Source: an uncultured Planctomycetota bacterium
GTDB lineage: Bacteria; Planctomycetota; Planctomycetia; Gemmatales; Gemmataceae
DNA length: 64,000 nt
Assembly (NCBI GenBank): GCA_963849325.1
Contig: CAWKHF010000012.1
Location: forward strand, 864,001-928,000
Direction: 5' to 3'
In this document: positions 13,724 through 56,791 of the stretch, piece by piece
Numbering within the stretch: the stretch's first letter is position 1
Layout of the letters: every line of letters begins with the position of its first letter
Made by a program: the position numbers and the translations under genes
Notes under the pieces: generated by a model
The model's input: the letters and a program-made list of their open reading frames with translations, nothing else
What the model was told of the DNA's origin: nothing
Database searches by the model: none

Positions 13724-15228
13724 GAATGGCGTTCGGTTAAGCGTAGCCTCTTTCGCTGCTTGAACTTCTGACGATCTTGGAAAGGCGGCAGCCTCCTGCC
13801 ATGATGGAGTTGTCCAGACCTCATCATCTCAGGAGGCCGCCATGCTTAGTATGTCGCAAGCCCTCGAACGCATCAAGGGTGCTACCGCCCAATGGATCGA
13901 TGCCCCCCTCATCCATTCCCTCGCACGAGCGCTCCGTCTCGGCGAACATCAGCGTCGGCTGACTCCCCTGGTCACCACCCACTTGTTCATCCGCCAAATC
14001 CTCGAAGGGAACACCTCGGTCTCCGAACTCCGCCGCCTCGCCAAGCTTTCCTTCGCAGACTCGTCCTACTGCGAGGCCCGACAACGCCTGCCCGTGCCCT
14101 TCTTCCAACGACTGGGCGTCGCCGTCCTCGACCGCTGCCGCTCCAGCGACAACGACCCACGCGCCTTGTGGCATGGTCATCGCGTCTTTTTCCTCGATGG
14201 TTCCAGTTTCTCCATGCCGGACACGCCCGACTTGCATGCCGCCTTCGGTCAGAGTGGCCAGCAGGCCCAAGGCTGCGGCTTCCCCACGGCCCACCTGCTG
14301 GTGCAGTTTCATGCCTACACCGGCTATCTGATCAACGTCATGCCGGGACCGTTACGGACGCACGACCTGGCCGACCTGACCTGGACCCACCGCGGACTGC
14401 GGGCTGGCGACGTGGTGGCCGGCGATCGCGCTTTCTGCTCCTATGCTCACCTGGCGATGCGACACCAACGAGGCGTTTTCAGCCTCTTTCGTGCCCATCA
14501 GCGTCTTATCATCTCCTTCAAGCCGCGGCGGAAGCACGTCGCGCCGAACCGTCAGCCCCGCAAGGCAGAAGCGGGCTTGCCCCACTCGCGCTGGCTGCGT
14601 CGGCTGGGCCGCGACGATCAACTCGTCGAGTACGTTAAGCCAGCCGAGTGTCCGGCCTGGATGGACAGCCAGGAGTATGAATCCTTGCCGTCGTCGCTGG
14701 TGGTCCGTGAGGTGCGTGTGCCGATCCGGACGCCGACTTGCCGGGTGCGGGAGTTGACCCTGGTGACAACGCTGTTGGATCGACGGCGTTATCCGCCGGA
14801 GGTGTTGGCTCGGCTGTACGAGAAGCGTTGGGGCGTGGAAGTCAATCTGCGTCACCTGAAACAGACCTTGCGCATGGACGTGCTGCGTTGTGAGACGTGG
14901 CAAGGTGTGTGGAAGGAACTGTTGGTCTTCGTGCTGGTGTATAATCTGGTGCGTCGGGTGATGGTGGAGGCGGCGCGACAGCAAGAGGTGGAACCAGAAC
15001 GTATTAGCTTCGCGGATGCGTGGCGTTGGTTGCGGGAAGCGCGGCATGGCGAAGAATTGCCGCGGCTGCAGGTAGTACCGTGTCGTCCCGGTCGCGTGGA
15101 ACCGCGGGTGAAGAAACGTCGGGCCAAACCCTACGACTTGATGAACCAACCACGAGCCGCGCTGCGCGAGAGATTGTTGCATCAAACGTCACCACCACAA
15201 GAAGATGCGGCTTAACCGAACGCCATTC
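13724..15228 (+). mobile_element. IS4-family insertion sequence, 1505 bp, 19-bp terminal IRs, 11-bp TSD
   Basis: IRL gaatggcgttcggttaagc (13724-13742), IRR gcttaaccgaacgccattc (15210-15228); TSD gttcctgacac at 13713-13723 and 15229-15239. Confidence 0.95.
13842..15215 (+). CDS. IS4-family DDE transposase
   Basis: FLDGS, GDRAF, Y(2)R(3)E(6)K signature YEKRWGVEVNLRHLK; intact 457 aa. Confidence 0.95.
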   Translation: MLSMSQALERIKGATAQWIDAPLIHSLARALRLGEHQRRLTPLVTTHLFIRQILEGNTSVSELRRLAKLSFADSSYCEARQRLPVPFFQRLGVAVLDRCRSSDNDPRALWHGHRVFFLDGSSFSMPDTPDLHAAFGQSGQQAQGCGFPTAHLLVQFHAYTGYLINVMPGPLRTHDLADLTWTHRGLRAGDVVAGDRAFCSYAHLAMRHQRGVFSLFRAHQRLIISFKPRRKHVAPNRQPRKAEAGLPHSRWLRRLGRDDQLVEYVKPAECPAWMDSQEYESLPSSLVVREVRVPIRTPTCRVRELTLVTTLLDRRRYPPEVLARLYEKRWGVEVNLRHLKQTLRMDVLRCETWQGVWKELLVFVLVYNLVRRVMVEAARQQEVEPERISFADAWRWLREARHGEELPRLQVVPCRPGRVEPRVKKRRAKPYDLMNQPRAALRERLLHQTSPPQEDAA

Positions 15229-15259: not shown

Positions 15260-15858
15260 CTACCCCCCTACGATCAGCGACAGGATGCCGACCAGCTTGG
15301 GCAGTTGGCGGACGTGATACTCCTGCTGGTCGAGAGCCACCGCCGACCCCACCAGCCGCAGGAACCGCCACACCGACCCGGATGTAACGGCCCCGTAGAC
15401 CTCGCTCCCCGGCTGCCCCTCCCGTTCGTTGAACAGCCGCGCTCCGACCATCGCCGCCACACATTGCCCAAGCCCCGACTTGAGGTTCTCGTTCTTCGCC
15501 TCCACGATGGCGGCGACCGGGCTCCGCAGGAACTGTTGCTCCGGCGATCGGGACAGGATGAAGTCGCAATACCCCGCTAGCCCTTGGGACGCATCGACCG
15601 TGAAGTCGATCCCGGAGAAAACGCTGAACCGGTGTCCGAGCTGAGCCCGGAGGGCGGCCAGGAGCGGGGCGATCACCAACTCGGAACGGGCCTTCTCGGT
15701 ATTGATGGCCAGGGCGAGCGGGACGAACTCCGGCAGCAGGCGCGGAGCAGCGGCCCCGGCTCGACTTCGGGCGCGTCGCCGAACAGGTCGGGCACGTCCG
15801 TGAGGGTGAGGCCGAACCGGTCGATCACCTCGCGCAAGGTGAAGTCGCTGTATGCCAC
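15260..15858 (-). CDS. Putative PD-(D/E)XK-fold protein; integron cassette 2 ORF (frameshift ~15740)
   Basis: GTG start with AGGAGG RBS; MAYSDFTL...GYCDFIL...IVEAKNE...GLGQCVAAM...YGAVTSGSVWRFL; D...ExK pattern. Confidence 0.7.
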
Positions 15859-15881: not shown

Positions 15882-15970
15882 GCCGAACACCCAGATCAGC
15901 AGCCAGTTGGCCAGGACAGATGTTGAAGCTTGGAAAGCCAGAATGGCCGCCCGGTCTGCTGCAGCGCCTG
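15882..15970 (-). other. Integron attC site, main part (R'' box displaced to 17804-17810 by the IS110 insertion)
   Basis: Reconstructed bottom strand: GCCGAAC-CAGGC-GCTGCAGC...GCTGATC-TGGGT-GTTCGGC; canonical 7-5-8...7-5-7 spacing, 96 bp, two extrahelical bases. Confidence 0.85.
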
Positions 15971-16056
15971 GATACTCATGAAGGCTCTTGAAGCACACTT
16001 GAAGGAGACAGCACTCAGCCGCTGTCTCCTTCACCTGCTAACAACGAGAGGTCTTC

Positions 16057-17106
16057 ATGCGCTACTTCCAACCTCCACCCGACACCCGATTCTATGCCGG
16101 CGTCGATCTCCACGCCAGATCCCTCTTCCTCGTCGTCCTCGACCACACCGGACAGATTCGCTACGCACGCAATCTCCCCGCCGCACCCCAGCCCTTCCGC
16201 AAAGCCATCACACCTTTCCGCGATGGACTCGTCGTCGGCTGCGAGTGCATGCACTGCTGGTACTGGCTGGCCGACGCCTGCCGCGACGACAACATCCCCT
16301 TCCTGCTCGGACACGCCTGGGCAATGAAAGCCGTCCACGGCAGCAAGACCAAGTGCGACCGTAAAGACGCCGAGGCCATCGCCCACCTGCTCAAGGGCGG
16401 CAACTTCCCGCTCGCCTACGCCTACCCCAAAGAACGACGTGGACTCCGCGACCTGCTCCGCGCACGCCTCCGCCTGGTCCGCCAACGCGCCGAACTCTAC
16501 GGCCACGTCCACACCGCACGACGACAGCTCAACTTGCCGCCCATCTCCAACGATGTCAAATACAAGTCCAAGCGTGCCAGCGTCCTGGCCGACATCGACG
16601 ACGACTGCGTCCGTCGCCGCGTCGAGGCCGACCTGTCGCTGCTGGAGCCGCTCGATACCACCATCCGACGACTGGAGAAGGACATCGAGGTCGCCGCACG
16701 ACAGCACTATGCCACCGAGATGGCCGTGCTGCAATCGACACCCGGCGTCGGCCTCGTCATCGCCCTGACCATCCTTTTGGAGATCGACACCCTCGAACGC
16801 TTCGACACCCGCCAGCAGTTCTGCTCCTATGCCCGGCTATGCGGCGCCCGCCAGGAGTCGGCCGGCAAGAAGGTGGGCACGGGCAACGCCAAGCAGGGCA
16901 ACGCCTGGCTGAAGTGGGCCTTCTCCGAGGCGGCCGTACTCAGCGCCCAGAAGGACGAACGCATCGGCCAGTACCTGGACAAGCTGTCGGGCCGTCTGGG
17001 CCAAGCCAAAGCCTTGTCGGCATTGGCCCACAAGCTGGGACGAGCCTTCTACCACATGCTCCACAAAAAGGAGGTCTTTCAGATCGACCAATTCCTGAGA
17101 CACTGA
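16057..17106 (+). CDS. IS110-family DEDD recombinase/transposase
   Basis: AGVDLH, CECM, KCDRKDA (DEDD RuvC-like); coiled coil; PGVG and ESAGK serine motif in the C-terminal domain; intact 349 aa. Confidence 0.95.
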   Translation: MRYFQPPPDTRFYAGVDLHARSLFLVVLDHTGQIRYARNLPAAPQPFRKAITPFRDGLVVGCECMHCWYWLADACRDDNIPFLLGHAWAMKAVHGSKTKCDRKDAEAIAHLLKGGNFPLAYAYPKERRGLRDLLRARLRLVRQRAELYGHVHTARRQLNLPPISNDVKYKSKRASVLADIDDDCVRRRVEADLSLLEPLDTTIRRLEKDIEVAARQHYATEMAVLQSTPGVGLVIALTILLEIDTLERFDTRQQFCSYARLCGARQESAGKKVGTGNAKQGNAWLKWAFSEAAVLSAQKDERIGQYLDKLSGRLGQAKALSALAHKLGRAFYHMLHKKEVFQIDQFLRH

Positions 17107-17780
17107 GAAGCCAGGGCGCGGCCGGCGAGCCGAAGCCGAACGGGAGCCGCTACGGGCTAACCCTTACGACGACCCCCACCATCCAGGGAGCATCGACTCC
17201 GCAGTGGGGGTCCGGGACCGCCCAGGCATCCAGCCGCTTTGATGGGACGCCGGCCGCGTCCGTATTATTTCGACCGCGGTGGTCGCAAAAACAGGCCGCG
17301 ATCCGCCGGTGGGTCGGGGGACCAACGGGATCAGCGTAACGCTGTCCCAAGGAATCGGGCTTGGCTTTGAGCCATCCCACGTCCTCCCGACCCCCGCCAG
17401 ACCGCGACCCGTGATCGCAAGGAGCCATTCGCCCGGACGATCCGCCCCAGTCGCCAGCCTGGCCGAACGGGACGCTCCTTTGGGGGAGTGAGCCAGTCGC
17501 TTTTTGAATGGCGGCGAAGCTGGGAACGTATGAATATCGGGACCGGCCAGGGCAGGTTCCCTGGCACAGCCGCCTGGTCCTTCGGGTCTGGGCCGCCGGA
17601 GTCCGCATGAGTGTTGGGTGCGGTTCGCCTCGGCCGTGGGCCGAAGGTGTTCCGCGTCCGTCGCTGATATCCAAGCCGGATCGCCGAGGACGATTGCTCA
17701 CTGCCGCTGCAACCTTGTTCGGTCATCCTTCCGGCAAGAAAAACGCCGGAGATACCCGTTCCCGTGGAAAATATTTTTAC
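17107..17780 (+). ncRNA. Candidate bridge/seek RNA region of the IS110 element (boundaries unknown)
   Basis: ~700 nt inside the element with no credible ORF; hairpins (e.g. ccagggcaggttccctgg 17547-17564); short matches to target and element ends. Confidence 0.55.
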
Positions 17781-17803
17781 TTGACACCAAGAGCCTTATG
17801 AGT
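17781..17803 (+). promoter_or_regulatory. Outward-facing -35 box; forms TTGACA-N17-GATACT promoter at the circle junction
   Basis: ttgaca at 17781-17786, exactly 17 nt to the element end at 17803; left end begins gatact (15971-15976); AT-rich tract just upstream. Confidence 0.75.
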
Positions 17804-17810
17804 GTTCGGC
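17804..17810 (-). other. attC R'' box (GCCGAAC on bottom strand)
   Basis: Lies ~30 nt after the stop codon of the 17840..18349 ORF; complementary to the box at 15882-15888. Confidence 0.8.
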
Positions 17811-56164: not shown

Positions 56165-56791
56165 ATGGCGATGCGATATGTAAAGTATACCAAGGAAGCC
56201 CTTGAAGAGGCCGTTCGGCAGAATCACTCCTTCTCTGGCGTCTTGCGAACGCTGGAGCGGAGGCTATCGGGTGGAACGCATTCGCATCTGGTTCGGCGAG
56301 TCAAGGCATTCGGTATCGATACATCACACTTTCTCGGTCGTGCATCCAACCGAGGCCCGAATCATAGGGGACCTAAGAAACTCCTTTGGGGCGAAGTCCT
56401 TGTGCTCCGTACAAACGGGCGAAGGCAAAAGGCGCATGTGTTACGGAGAGCTTTGCTGGAATTGGGTAGGGAATATCGATGCGAGGGGAAGGGCTGCTCC
56501 CTGACCGACCGATGGCTTGAGAAACCGCTAGTGCTCCACGTCAATCATAAAAATGGAAACTGGTTGGATGATCGCGCCGAGAACTTGGAGTTCCTTTGCC
56601 CCAATTGTCATAGTCAGACGGCGAACTACTGCCGAGGGATGCGGCCGGATCAACGGACAAGTATTGCGCCGTGGTGCAGGGAGTATCAGAAGCGCAGGAA
56701 AGGCCCCGTGACGGAATTGGCAGACGTTTGTGGCTTAGAACCACAGGTCCTAATGGACGTGAGGGTTCGAGTCCCTCCGGGGCCAGTATAG
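56165..56791 (+). CDS. HNH endonuclease
   Basis: YTKEALEEAV...GGTHSHL...GIDTSHFLG N-domain; LHVNHKNGNWLDDRAENLEFLCPNCHSQT. Confidence 0.9.
   Translation: MAMRYVKYTKEALEEAVRQNHSFSGVLRTLERRLSGGTHSHLVRRVKAFGIDTSHFLGRASNRGPNHRGPKKLLWGEVLVLRTNGRRQKAHVLRRALLELGREYRCEGKGCSLTDRWLEKPLVLHVNHKNGNWLDDRAENLEFLCPNCHSQTANYCRGMRPDQRTSIAPWCREYQKRRKGPVTELADVCGLEPQVLMDVRVRVPPGPV
56702..56785 (+). tRNA. tRNA-Leu(TAG)
   Basis: Acceptor GGCCCCG/CGGGGCC+A; D loop GAATTGGCAGA; anticodon arm TGTGG-CTTAGAA-CCACA; long variable arm GTCC-TAAT-GGAC; T arm GAGGG-TTCGAGT-CCCTC; CCA not encoded. Confidence 0.95.

Follow-up and report, generated by a model that had tools for sequence, protein, structure and literature searches.

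An insertion sequence of the ISGsu4/ISMahy12 group with IS1111-like anatomy, probably inserted site-specifically into an integron attC site of a planctomycete

The 64,000-nucleotide stretch of DNA analyzed here (contig CAWKHF010000012.1 of an uncultured member of the Gemmataceae, positions 864,001 to 928,000; hereafter the window) carries an insertion sequence (IS) that splits a recombination site of the type used by integrons. We read it as an IS110-superfamily element of the ISGsu4/ISMahy12 group that has IS1111-like anatomy and is inserted site-specifically into an integron attC site, and we place the probability of this reading as a whole at about 0.8. An initial annotation of the window had proposed that an IS110/IS1111-type DEDD recombinase element sits precisely at the junction of the R'' box and its spacer in an attC, and that its removal restores a 96-bp hairpin with attC spacing and two extrahelical bases; its statements about the sequence proved correct. 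The annotation had left undecided whether the element belongs to the attC-targeting IS1111 subgroup represented by ISPa21, ISPst6 and ISKpn4, and BLASTP, a 24-row tree, the identity matrix in the source data of PMC11187229 and the position of insertion now place it outside that subgroup. Already known are IS110/IS1111 elements in attC sites and RNA guidance as a kind of system; what is new is the lineage, the exact insertion site, the range of hosts and a non-coding region that is long and has two modules. Coordinates of all features are collected in Table 1.

In silico excision of nucleotides 15971-17803 joins ...GCAGCGCCTG to GTTCGGC and produces a 96-nt imperfect palindrome made up of positions 15882-15970 and 17804-17810. 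Box geometry and the integron array of a related genome described below identify the plus strand of the window as the attC bottom strand. On that strand the larger part reads GCCGAAC-ACCCA-GAT-CAGCAG...CCGG[T]CTGCTG[C]AGC-GCCTG, in which the bracketed T15955 and C15962 (A and G on the minus strand) are unpaired extra bases in one arm, and the 7-nt R boxes, GCCGAAC at 15882 and GTTCGGC at 17804, are fully complementary. The site has the R''/L''...L'/R' arrangement of an attC, with two extrahelical bases on the bottom strand, and its two unpaired bases are spaced (extra base, 6 nt, extra base, 3 nt, 5-nt spacer, R box) as in the smr attC of a class 1 cassette (L118). An attC profile was built with nhmmer solely from 11 sites of the integron array of the related planctomycete genome G002. 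On the intact window this profile matches 15885-15971 (41.1 bits, model positions 1-89), the match ending at the element, and after excision the rejoined site scores 50.0 bits (E 5.9e-12, model positions 1-95). Among 25 alternative deletion boundaries, 50.0 bits was reached only for 15971-17803 and 15972-17804, which are equivalent because a single G is common to both junctions; the next boundary gave 49.2 bits and those after it at most 44.9. With the G002-derived profile standing in for an attC covariance model, excision thus scored best when exactly the segment proposed in the annotation was removed.

We weighed the identification of the target as an attC against the alternative that the element had entered some other dispersed palindromic repeat, similar to the repetitive extragenic palindromic (REP) sequences. 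This alternative would account for the scattered distribution of the repeat family in the 8.2-Mb genome of the window (G000), where a genome-wide profile made from hand-picked seeds gave 47 nhmmer matches as singles or pairs 650-850 bp apart, and where the window itself carries one lone site and no cassette array. It would also suit the second extrahelical base, which on the bottom strand is C at the window site as compared to G in the smr attC, and it has precedent, as many IS110-family elements prefer palindromic repeats and ISPa11 is reported to target REP sequences (PMC11187229). Two further results speak for this alternative: no integron integrase was found above the TIGR02249 cut-off in the window's assembly (best score 85 bits, at C10), and the hairpin energy of the rejoined 96-mer is no better than that of 300 dinucleotide shuffles (minimum free energies of -16.9 and -19.0 kcal/mol for the plus and minus strands; z-scores of -0.5 and -1.1). 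A REP-like repeat, however, fits poorly with what is found in G002, which is also home to two copies of the element (L029 and L033). There, an integrase of 428 bits (cut-off 265) is followed directly, within 10 kb, by 12 matches to the repeat family, 11 of them in one orientation, and open reading frames (ORFs) with coding-type codon-position GC stop 2-5 nt ahead of the repeats; codon-position GC was used to orient these cassettes because ORF length is uninformative when long ORFs are present on both strands. The one-orientation array beside an integrase, each site following a cassette ORF, is thus present in G002 and not in the window. A REP-like repeat is likewise at odds with the box layout and extra-base spacing shared with the smr attC, and with the gammaproteobacterial relatives that lie 2-17 kb from integrases on the cassette side. 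Moreover, a lone attC is a described state: integrons in Planctomycetes and lone attC sites or clusters of attC sites lacking integrases (CALIN) have been reported (PMC4889954, PMC2426708). It is this comparative evidence that is decisive, not hairpin energy, and judged by it the interrupted site is a genuine attC; that the target is a repeat of another kind seems to us very improbable. The repeat family thereby documents integron sites in Gemmataceae-like genomes, including an array after its integrase and in the same orientation.

The G002 array (G002:C11:781000-791000, L114) lies downstream of intI (G002:C11:780065-781009) and has the same orientation as that gene, a layout which we take to be the 'inverted integrase' type, unlike the divergent layout of class 1 integrons. 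A fuzzy 16-mer search for the repeat family that tolerated 3 mismatches returned 564 matches, mostly spurious, and was set aside. Rfam, which holds no attC family, was scanned against the window at the gathering threshold and matched a tRNA only, with no match to a bridge-RNA family.

Insertion is site-specific: in many copies, and in two phyla, the element lies at the R''/spacer boundary, immediately 5' of GTTCGGC and antisense to the cassettes. In the window the cassette-like ORFs on both sides are encoded on the minus strand, and the element on the plus strand is therefore antisense to them, as the annotation had stated. Comparison of the junctions reveals no target duplication beyond the one shared G. 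The boundary follows from the excision scan and from comparison of flanks among copies. About a dozen uninterrupted sister sites in G000, chosen by eye from 68 pattern matches, have the form ...GCAGCG-NNNN-GTTCGGC. A second full copy in G000 (C7:540433-542265) differs from the window element at 13 of 1833 positions, all inside the transposase gene (tnp); three of the changes alter the protein, the ORF is intact, and the 697-nt non-coding region is identical. This copy and a derivative on C5 that resembles a miniature inverted-repeat transposable element (MITE) have the left flank ...CCGGTCTRCYGCAGCGNNTG and the right flank GTTCGGC. A 5'-truncated copy in G000, 86% identical, abuts GTTAGGG, and two solo right-end footprints adjoin R-box-like heptamers (Table 1). 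Degenerate IS footprints have been reported for the IS1111-attC group, and the solo right ends L009 and L010 resemble them.

Beyond this genome, copies in metagenome-assembled genomes of Gemmataceae, Planctomycetaceae and Fimbriiglobus encode proteins 68-93% identical to the window transposase, the highest value belonging to a Gemmataceae copy, and have the same flanks as in the window save two. One exception is L033, in which a short right-end remnant intervenes before the flank; the other, L031, has the misfitting right flank GCCGAGC, which counts against our reading. More distant elements of marine Gammaproteobacteria, 45-51% identical, have a GATACT left tip and a TTGAC right end and are followed at once by GTTAGGY or GTTATGY, which is the classical R box of an attC. 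For the comparison of ends, a script placed 55 of 77 loci; 46 were kept by eye and were joined by L020, the window and C12b to give a set of 49 elements. Excluded were L031 (misfit right flank), L050, L056, L064, L071, L078, L088 and L092 (wrong right-end pick), L058 (contig ends), and the loci in which no ends were found. The right flank begins with GTT in 44 of the 49. In all flanks printed, the left flank ends in T in gammaproteobacterial copies or G in planctomycete copies. Every gammaproteobacterial copy that shares a region with an integrase (4/4) is antisense and found 2-17 kb from intI, on the side of the cassettes. The empty site, ...CCTGG/TTCGGCC (the slash marks the insertion point), is present in one contig assembled from RNA of a soil sample. 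Matches in sequencing runs, all from soil-type metagenomes, cover small shares (<=0.11).

Several further observations were made on these copies. The first 60 nt of tnp (window 16075-16134) account for seven of the 13 positions at which the two full copies differ, and six of these seven changes are C to T. The C7 copy (L002/L005, G000:C7:540433-542360) has its last 96 bp (element positions 1738-1833) tandemly repeated before the GTTCGGC flank; L044 and L067 have similarly doubled right ends, and L033 contains a right-end remnant of 9 nt. The C5 MITE-like derivative retains the homologue of 17500-17803 and is without the module that holds the first R-box heptamer. Two segments of G000, C12:1472093-1472437 (L007) and C4:31256-31386 (L006), are 71-88% identical to the 5' part of tnp and are probably remnants of related elements. 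In a Kangiellaceae genome (G004; L073, L079 and L087), three integrases score above the cut-off, and each has a gammaproteobacterial relative of the element 2-4 kb away on the cassette side.

The element itself combines an IS110-superfamily transposase with the architecture of the IS1111 type. The 349-residue protein matches both Pfam domains expected of a DEDD recombinase of this superfamily, DEDD_Tnp_IS110 (PF01548; E 1.4e-11, 44.8 bits, cut-off 29) and Transposase_20 (PF02371; E 1e-16, 61.5 bits, cut-off 21.3), in agreement with the annotation, and the superfamily assignment is completed by the minimal duplication and the site-specific insertion. Its translation contains GVDLH, ECMH, KCDRKDA and ESAGK, which we presume to be the motifs of the catalytic residues. 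The IS1111 type is defined by subterminal inverted repeats of ~11-13 bp with short asymmetric terminal extensions (PMC11187229). Correspondingly, the imperfect inverted repeats noted in the annotation (15974-15990 and 17788-17803) are present and differ by one indel; their perfect 10-bp core extends to a 16/17 match, and outside them the left extension measures ~6-10 nt and the right one ~3-6 nt, according to how the repeats are delimited. Non-coding DNA around tnp is equally asymmetric, with 86 nt upstream as compared to 697 nt downstream. GATACT and the adjoining repeat are kept in planctomycete and gammaproteobacterial copies alike, as is TTGAC at the right end. The element is intact and probably still mobile.

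Comparison of the transposases addresses the possibility that the element is simply a diverged member of the IS1111-attC subgroup (ISPa21, ISPst6, ISKpn4, ISPa25), in which case neither its lineage nor its target position would be new. Membership is suggested by the use of the same end of attC in the same antisense orientation (PMC3001079), and by a similar general anatomy with subterminal repeats and a 3' non-coding region. The protein, however, shows no full-length relatedness to the IS1111-type transposases with which it was compared. Public plasmid sequence supplied both ISPa21, which occupies the smr attC of pME-1a, and IS4321, and BLASTP aligned the window transposase to the former over 167 residues at 24% identity (E 1e-4) and to the latter over 263 residues at 20%. 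A tblastn search of 72,556 plasmids with the transposase returned 313 records, all below 60% identity, and among the 90 matches listed there was no Enterobacterales record and no copy of IS4321, ISPa21 or ISKpn4. In a 24-row maximum-likelihood tree, of which the L033 row (a frame-shifted ORF with a branch length of ~9) was disregarded, the window transposase groups with Gemmataceae copies, with the gammaproteobacterial clade as their sister (support 96/97 and 100/98), whereas ISPa21 and IS4321 stand together beyond three long, well-supported branches. Members of the ISPst6/ISPa21 cluster are >76% identical to one another, and ISPst6, ISKpn4 and ISPa21 mutually >85%, according to the matrix and source data of PMC11187229; the window transposase falls outside this cluster, and the window element shares with it the one-orientation insertion near the 5' end of attC. 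The insertion point also differs, as comparison with the empty smr attC places ISPa21 after CTAAC-AATTCA(T), 6-7 nt deeper inside the site from R'', and the ends of the two elements are unrelated. In light of these differences, membership in the IS1111-attC subgroup has only a very slight chance of being correct.

The affinities of the transposase lie instead with ISGsu4 and ISMahy12. According to the same matrix, these two elements group with ISGsu5, ISShfr7 and ISShwo5 at 54-70% identity, and ISShfr7 and ISShwo5 are ~17% identical to ISPst6. The text of that paper mentions exceptions that carry subterminal repeats within a deep-branching group classed as IS110 (PMC11187229). Long motifs are shared between ISMahy12, ISGsu4 and the window transposase, as judged by reading the printed sequences and not by computed alignment, and the Marinobacter loci L074, L083, L093 and L098 begin with the first 15 residues of ISMahy12. 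To these Marinobacter and other gammaproteobacterial copies the window protein is 45-51% identical over residues 11-348. Sequence comparison thus places the element outside the IS1111-attC subgroup and within the deep-branching ISGsu4/ISMahy12 group, and the transposase and the anatomy, taken together, therefore describe an element of IS1111-type anatomy whose transposase lies outside the IS1111 cluster. In the full-text literature, as distinct from ISfinder notes and the 2008-2009 attC papers, we found no published statement that the ISGsu4/ISMahy12 group targets attC, and a literature search combining the IS110 family, attC and Planctomycetes returned nothing relevant.

To understand how such an element might recognize its target, we considered the 697-nt region downstream of tnp. 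Its predicted secondary structure is conserved: across eight planctomycete copies, 14 of the 42 pairs predicted for one folded part and 13 of the 56 predicted for the other show compensatory changes. The heptamer GCCGAAC in the first module, the reverse complement of the right flank GTTCGGC, starts 28 nt past the tnp stop codon and is a candidate guide for the right half of the target. At the same post-stop position the gammaproteobacterial copies have GCCTAAC, GTCTAAC or GTATAAC beside GTTAG or GTTAT flanks, and the heptamer therefore follows the attC type of each clade (CTAAC/GTTAG as compared to CGAAC/GTTCG). A second segment, ATGAGTGTT, equals the last 6 nt of the right end followed by the flank GTT. 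The exact right-end 9-mer recurs inside the element's own non-coding region in 42 of the 49 elements, against 4 of 392 comparisons with foreign tails, and the right-end 5-mer does so in 49/49 against 0/245, across six tail types; as far as the compared sequences go, the right-end tail and the internal segment at 17607 covary. A third segment, ATGAATATC, is a candidate guide for the left end; it is within one mismatch in four planctomycete elements (the window, L027, L028 and L029) and perfect in L029. The 17530 and 17607 segments are both predicted to be single-stranded, in stretches bordering a conserved helical domain. At its final position the right end has either T, as in the internal segment, or G, as in the target, and this variation fits a 2-nt core (KG) common to donor and target. 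Because all elements start with G and the gammaproteobacterial left flanks terminate in T, the gammaproteobacterial copies have TG at both junctions.

RNA-guided recombination is likely, because the structured 3' region carries segments that match the R box and the right end, the latter covarying with the end itself. For characterized IS1111-type elements, the 3' non-coding region yields a transposase-bound seekRNA of 70-100 nt in which the top-strand match lies 5' of the bottom-strand match, and the excised circle forms a junction promoter (PMC11187229). Relatives that have been tested excise as circles, and their transposase is led to its target by an RNA made from the long non-coding end (PMC11187229, PMC11208160). 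By analogy, the window element would excise as a circle in which the right end is joined to the left end, so that a promoter of the form TTGACA-N17-GATACT at the junction could drive tnp and the downstream non-coding RNA. This RNA would stay on the DEDD transposase, where the heptamer GCCGAAC would pair with GTTCGGC of the target, ATGAGTGTT would pair for the right end and core, and ATGAATATC for the left end. Recombination would then take place at the 2-nt core (KG), which is GG at the left and TG at the right junction of the window copy, without a true duplication. The production of the RNA, the guide role of the segments, the circle with its promoter and the 2-nt core are thus steps that we infer from related systems.

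Several results weigh against this mechanism. The heptamer does not track the flank within clades, as L029 and L033 have GCCCAAC beside GTTCGGC, and many gammaproteobacterial copies have GTCTAAC beside GTTATG. No gammaproteobacterial element has the left-end guide candidate at one mismatch or fewer, and for the left half of the target no convincing guide was found in the 3' region. Independent covariation events at the right end are few (about five or six), because the tail classes follow the clades. Enrichment of matches in the non-coding region of the window element is modest: it has 9 target 7-mers, whereas shuffled sequences average 3.1 (9 is reached in 22 of 1000), and 2 donor-junction 7-mers, for which the shuffles give 0.28 (54 of 1000). 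The proposed RNA region, at ~550-700 nt with two similar modules, far exceeds characterized seek and bridge RNAs. Parts of tnp and of the non-coding region are represented in contigs from two RNA libraries, which speak for the presence of soil relatives, not for transcription, and the circle junction was not seen in metagenome or metatranscriptome contigs.

Some of these results would be expected if the transposase protein itself recognized the folded attC or the R box, with the 3' region serving only mRNA stability, regulation or end recognition. The integron integrase recognizes attC by structure, which lends this alternative plausibility, as do the heptamer's poor agreement with individual flanks within clades, the failure to find a guide for the left target, and the length of the 3' region. 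On the other hand, the heptamer shifts with the attC type between clades, the internal copy of the right-end tail covaries with it in all 49 elements, and the 17530 and 17607 segments occupy predicted unpaired stretches between conserved helices. In addition, all IS110/IS1111 members tested so far use an RNA from the non-coding end, including the attC-targeting ISKpn4 and ISPst6 (PMC11187229, PMC11208160). We therefore regard recognition by protein as unlikely, and RNA guidance as the better account of the 3' region.

Other segments of the 3' region were considered and found less informative. The second GCCGAAC, in module 2, was rejected as a covarying guide; it is replaced by CCTAAC in C12b, whose flank is GTTAGGG, but also in L029 and L033, whose flank is GTTCGGC. 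CGCCTGG at 17571 was dismissed as a left-target guide and taken as a chance match, since it lies inside a helix with compensatory changes and is not conserved. GCTTTGAT at 17236 is kept in both clades and matches the left junction over only 4-5 nt. GCTGCAACCTTGTTCGGTC, which resembles the target across the insertion point, is present only in copies >86% identical and is absent from L029, L031, L032 and L033.

It is instructive to compare the element with the IS1111-attC group (ISPa21, ISPst6, ISKpn4 and, more distantly, ISPa25), the subject of Tetu and Holmes (2008) and Post and Hall (2009), as cited in PMC3001079 and PMC11187229. Both combine a DEDD transposase with subterminal inverted repeats and an extended non-coding region 3' of the gene; both are site- and orientation-specific, entering attC close to its R''/L'' end and lying antisense to the cassettes, and both leave solo-end footprints there. 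The 3' region of ISKpn4 and of ISPst6 gives rise to a seekRNA that matches both target strands (PMC11187229). They differ in that their transposases can barely be aligned, the ends of ISPa21 have no similarity to those of the window element, and ISPa21 lies between the spacer and L'' whereas the window element lies between R'' and the spacer. The 697-nt 3' region with two similar modules also sets the window element apart, and its clade is found in Planctomycetota and marine Gammaproteobacteria, as compared to Pseudomonas and clinical class 1 integrons for the IS1111-attC group. With ISGsu4, ISGsu5, ISMahy12, ISShfr7 and ISShwo5 (IS110 in ISfinder) it shares its transposase lineage, and the gammaproteobacterial copies have the same GATACT, right-end -35 box and insertion position beside GTTRRRY; however, these copies are only 45-51% identical in protein, have a 3' region of ~440 nt instead of 697 nt, and contain an R-box heptamer of the CTAAC type rather than CGAAC.

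Likeness to experimentally studied systems is more general. In common with IS621 and its bridge RNA and with ISEc11 and its seekRNA (PMC11208160, PMC11187229), the window element has a DEDD recombinase, a proposed circle with a junction promoter, and candidate short target and donor guide segments that share a core; as in IS1111-type seekRNAs (PMC11187229), an antisense match lies 5' of a sense match. Unlike those systems, it is known from sequence alone, its guide-bearing region exceeds theirs several-fold in length, a guide for the left target was not found, and its target is a structured recombination site and not a linear sequence. Group IIC-attC introns also occupy the 5' end of attC antisense to the cassettes (PMC3001079), but they are retroelements with a ribozyme and a reverse transcriptase and no DEDD transposase, whereas the window element has neither ribozyme nor reverse transcriptase.

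Combining these strands, one may propose that the ISGsu4/ISMahy12 group is an independent second RNA-guided DEDD lineage that exploits integrons; that it cuts at the R''/spacer boundary, 6-7 bp from the IS1111-attC site; that it crossed between Gammaproteobacteria and Planctomycetota by one-base retuning of the heptamer (CTAAC to CGAAC) to the R box of the host phylum; and that its 3' RNA of ~550-700 nt has two modules with target- and donor-type guide segments. We give this combined proposal an even chance. If it is true, attC targeting arose at least twice in the superfamily, and the clade represents a natural case of guide reprogramming between phyla. To our knowledge, insertion sequences that disable or remodel attC sites were known only from one tight Pseudomonas-centered group, which provided two of the first seekRNA examples. 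The present data show that a very distant branch of the superfamily also targets attC, at a neighboring nucleotide; its hosts are soil planctomycetes and marine Gammaproteobacteria that have chromosomal integrons. This widens the picture of integron parasitism beyond clinical settings and offers a natural comparison of two solutions for recognizing one structured DNA site. As these elements are diverse in sequence, with thousands of metagenomic homologues, covariation among them could reveal the guide-target rules of an uncharacterized long guide RNA.

Table 1. Positions of the element, its target, candidate guide segments and neighboring features; coordinates refer to the window unless a contig of its genome (G000) is given.
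Feature	Position	Strand	Description
Insertion sequence, intact	15971-17803	+	1833 bp; IS110 superfamily; boundaries from flank comparison and excision scan
Left end	15971-15990	+	GATACT at 15971-15976, candidate -10 box of a circle-junction promoter
Subterminal inverted repeat core, left	15981-15990	+	AAGGCTCTTG
5' leader hairpin	16000-16033	+	Perfect, 13 nt; between left end and tnp start; from inverted-repeat scan
Transposase gene (tnp), intact	16057-17106	+	349 amino acids (aa); GC at third codon positions (GC3) 0.83
3' non-coding region	17107-17803	+	697 nt; proposed source of a guide (seek/bridge) RNA
Module 1	17113-17263	+	Domain of ~150 nt closed by helix 17113-17127 with 17248-17263; holds first R-box antisense heptamer
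GCCGAAC heptamer	17135-17141	+	Reverse complement of right flank GTTCGGC; candidate right-target guide
Second GCCGAAC, module 2	17462-17468	+	
ATGAATATC	17530-17538	+	Reverse complement of left-end bases 1-9 GATACTCAT with one mismatch; predicted unpaired; candidate left-end guide
ATGAGTGTT	17607-17615	+	Equals right-end last 6 nt plus flank GTT (17798-17806); predicted unpaired; candidate right-end/core guide
GCTGCAACCTTGTTCGGTC	17706-17724	+	Sense-strand look-alike of target across insertion point
Right end	17781-17803	+	-35-like TTGACA at 17781-17786; tail ATGAGT at 17798-17803
Subterminal inverted repeat, right	17788-17797	+	CAAGAGCCTT
Larger attC part	15882-15970	-	Spacer-L''...L'-spacer-R' on the minus (cassette/top) strand
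Detached R'' box	17804-17810	-	GCCGAAC on minus, GTTCGGC on plus strand
MITE-like derivative (L004/L008)	G000:C5:954502-954869	-	76 nt of left end and ~300 nt of right end, in another attC
Solo 46-nt right-end footprint (L009)	G000:C12:510833-510878		Adjoins GTGCGGC
Solo 46-nt right-end footprint (L010)	G000:C7:458540-458586		Adjoins GTTAGGC
Two serial ORFs, 61 aa and 139 aa	15260-15858	-	GC3 0.85-0.86; start 24 nt after attC R' box
Cassette-like ORF, 169 aa	17840-18349	-	No Pfam family; ends 30 nt before attC R'' box
tRNA gene	56702-56785	+	Sole Rfam match in the window

On the R' side of the interrupted site, the two serial ORFs at 15260-15858 occupy the position of a next cassette. Just beyond them lies a second mobile element (13842-15215, plus strand) with a 457-aa ORF that matches Pfam DDE_Tnp_1 (IS4/IS5-like), and this element may truncate the cassette-like ORFs.

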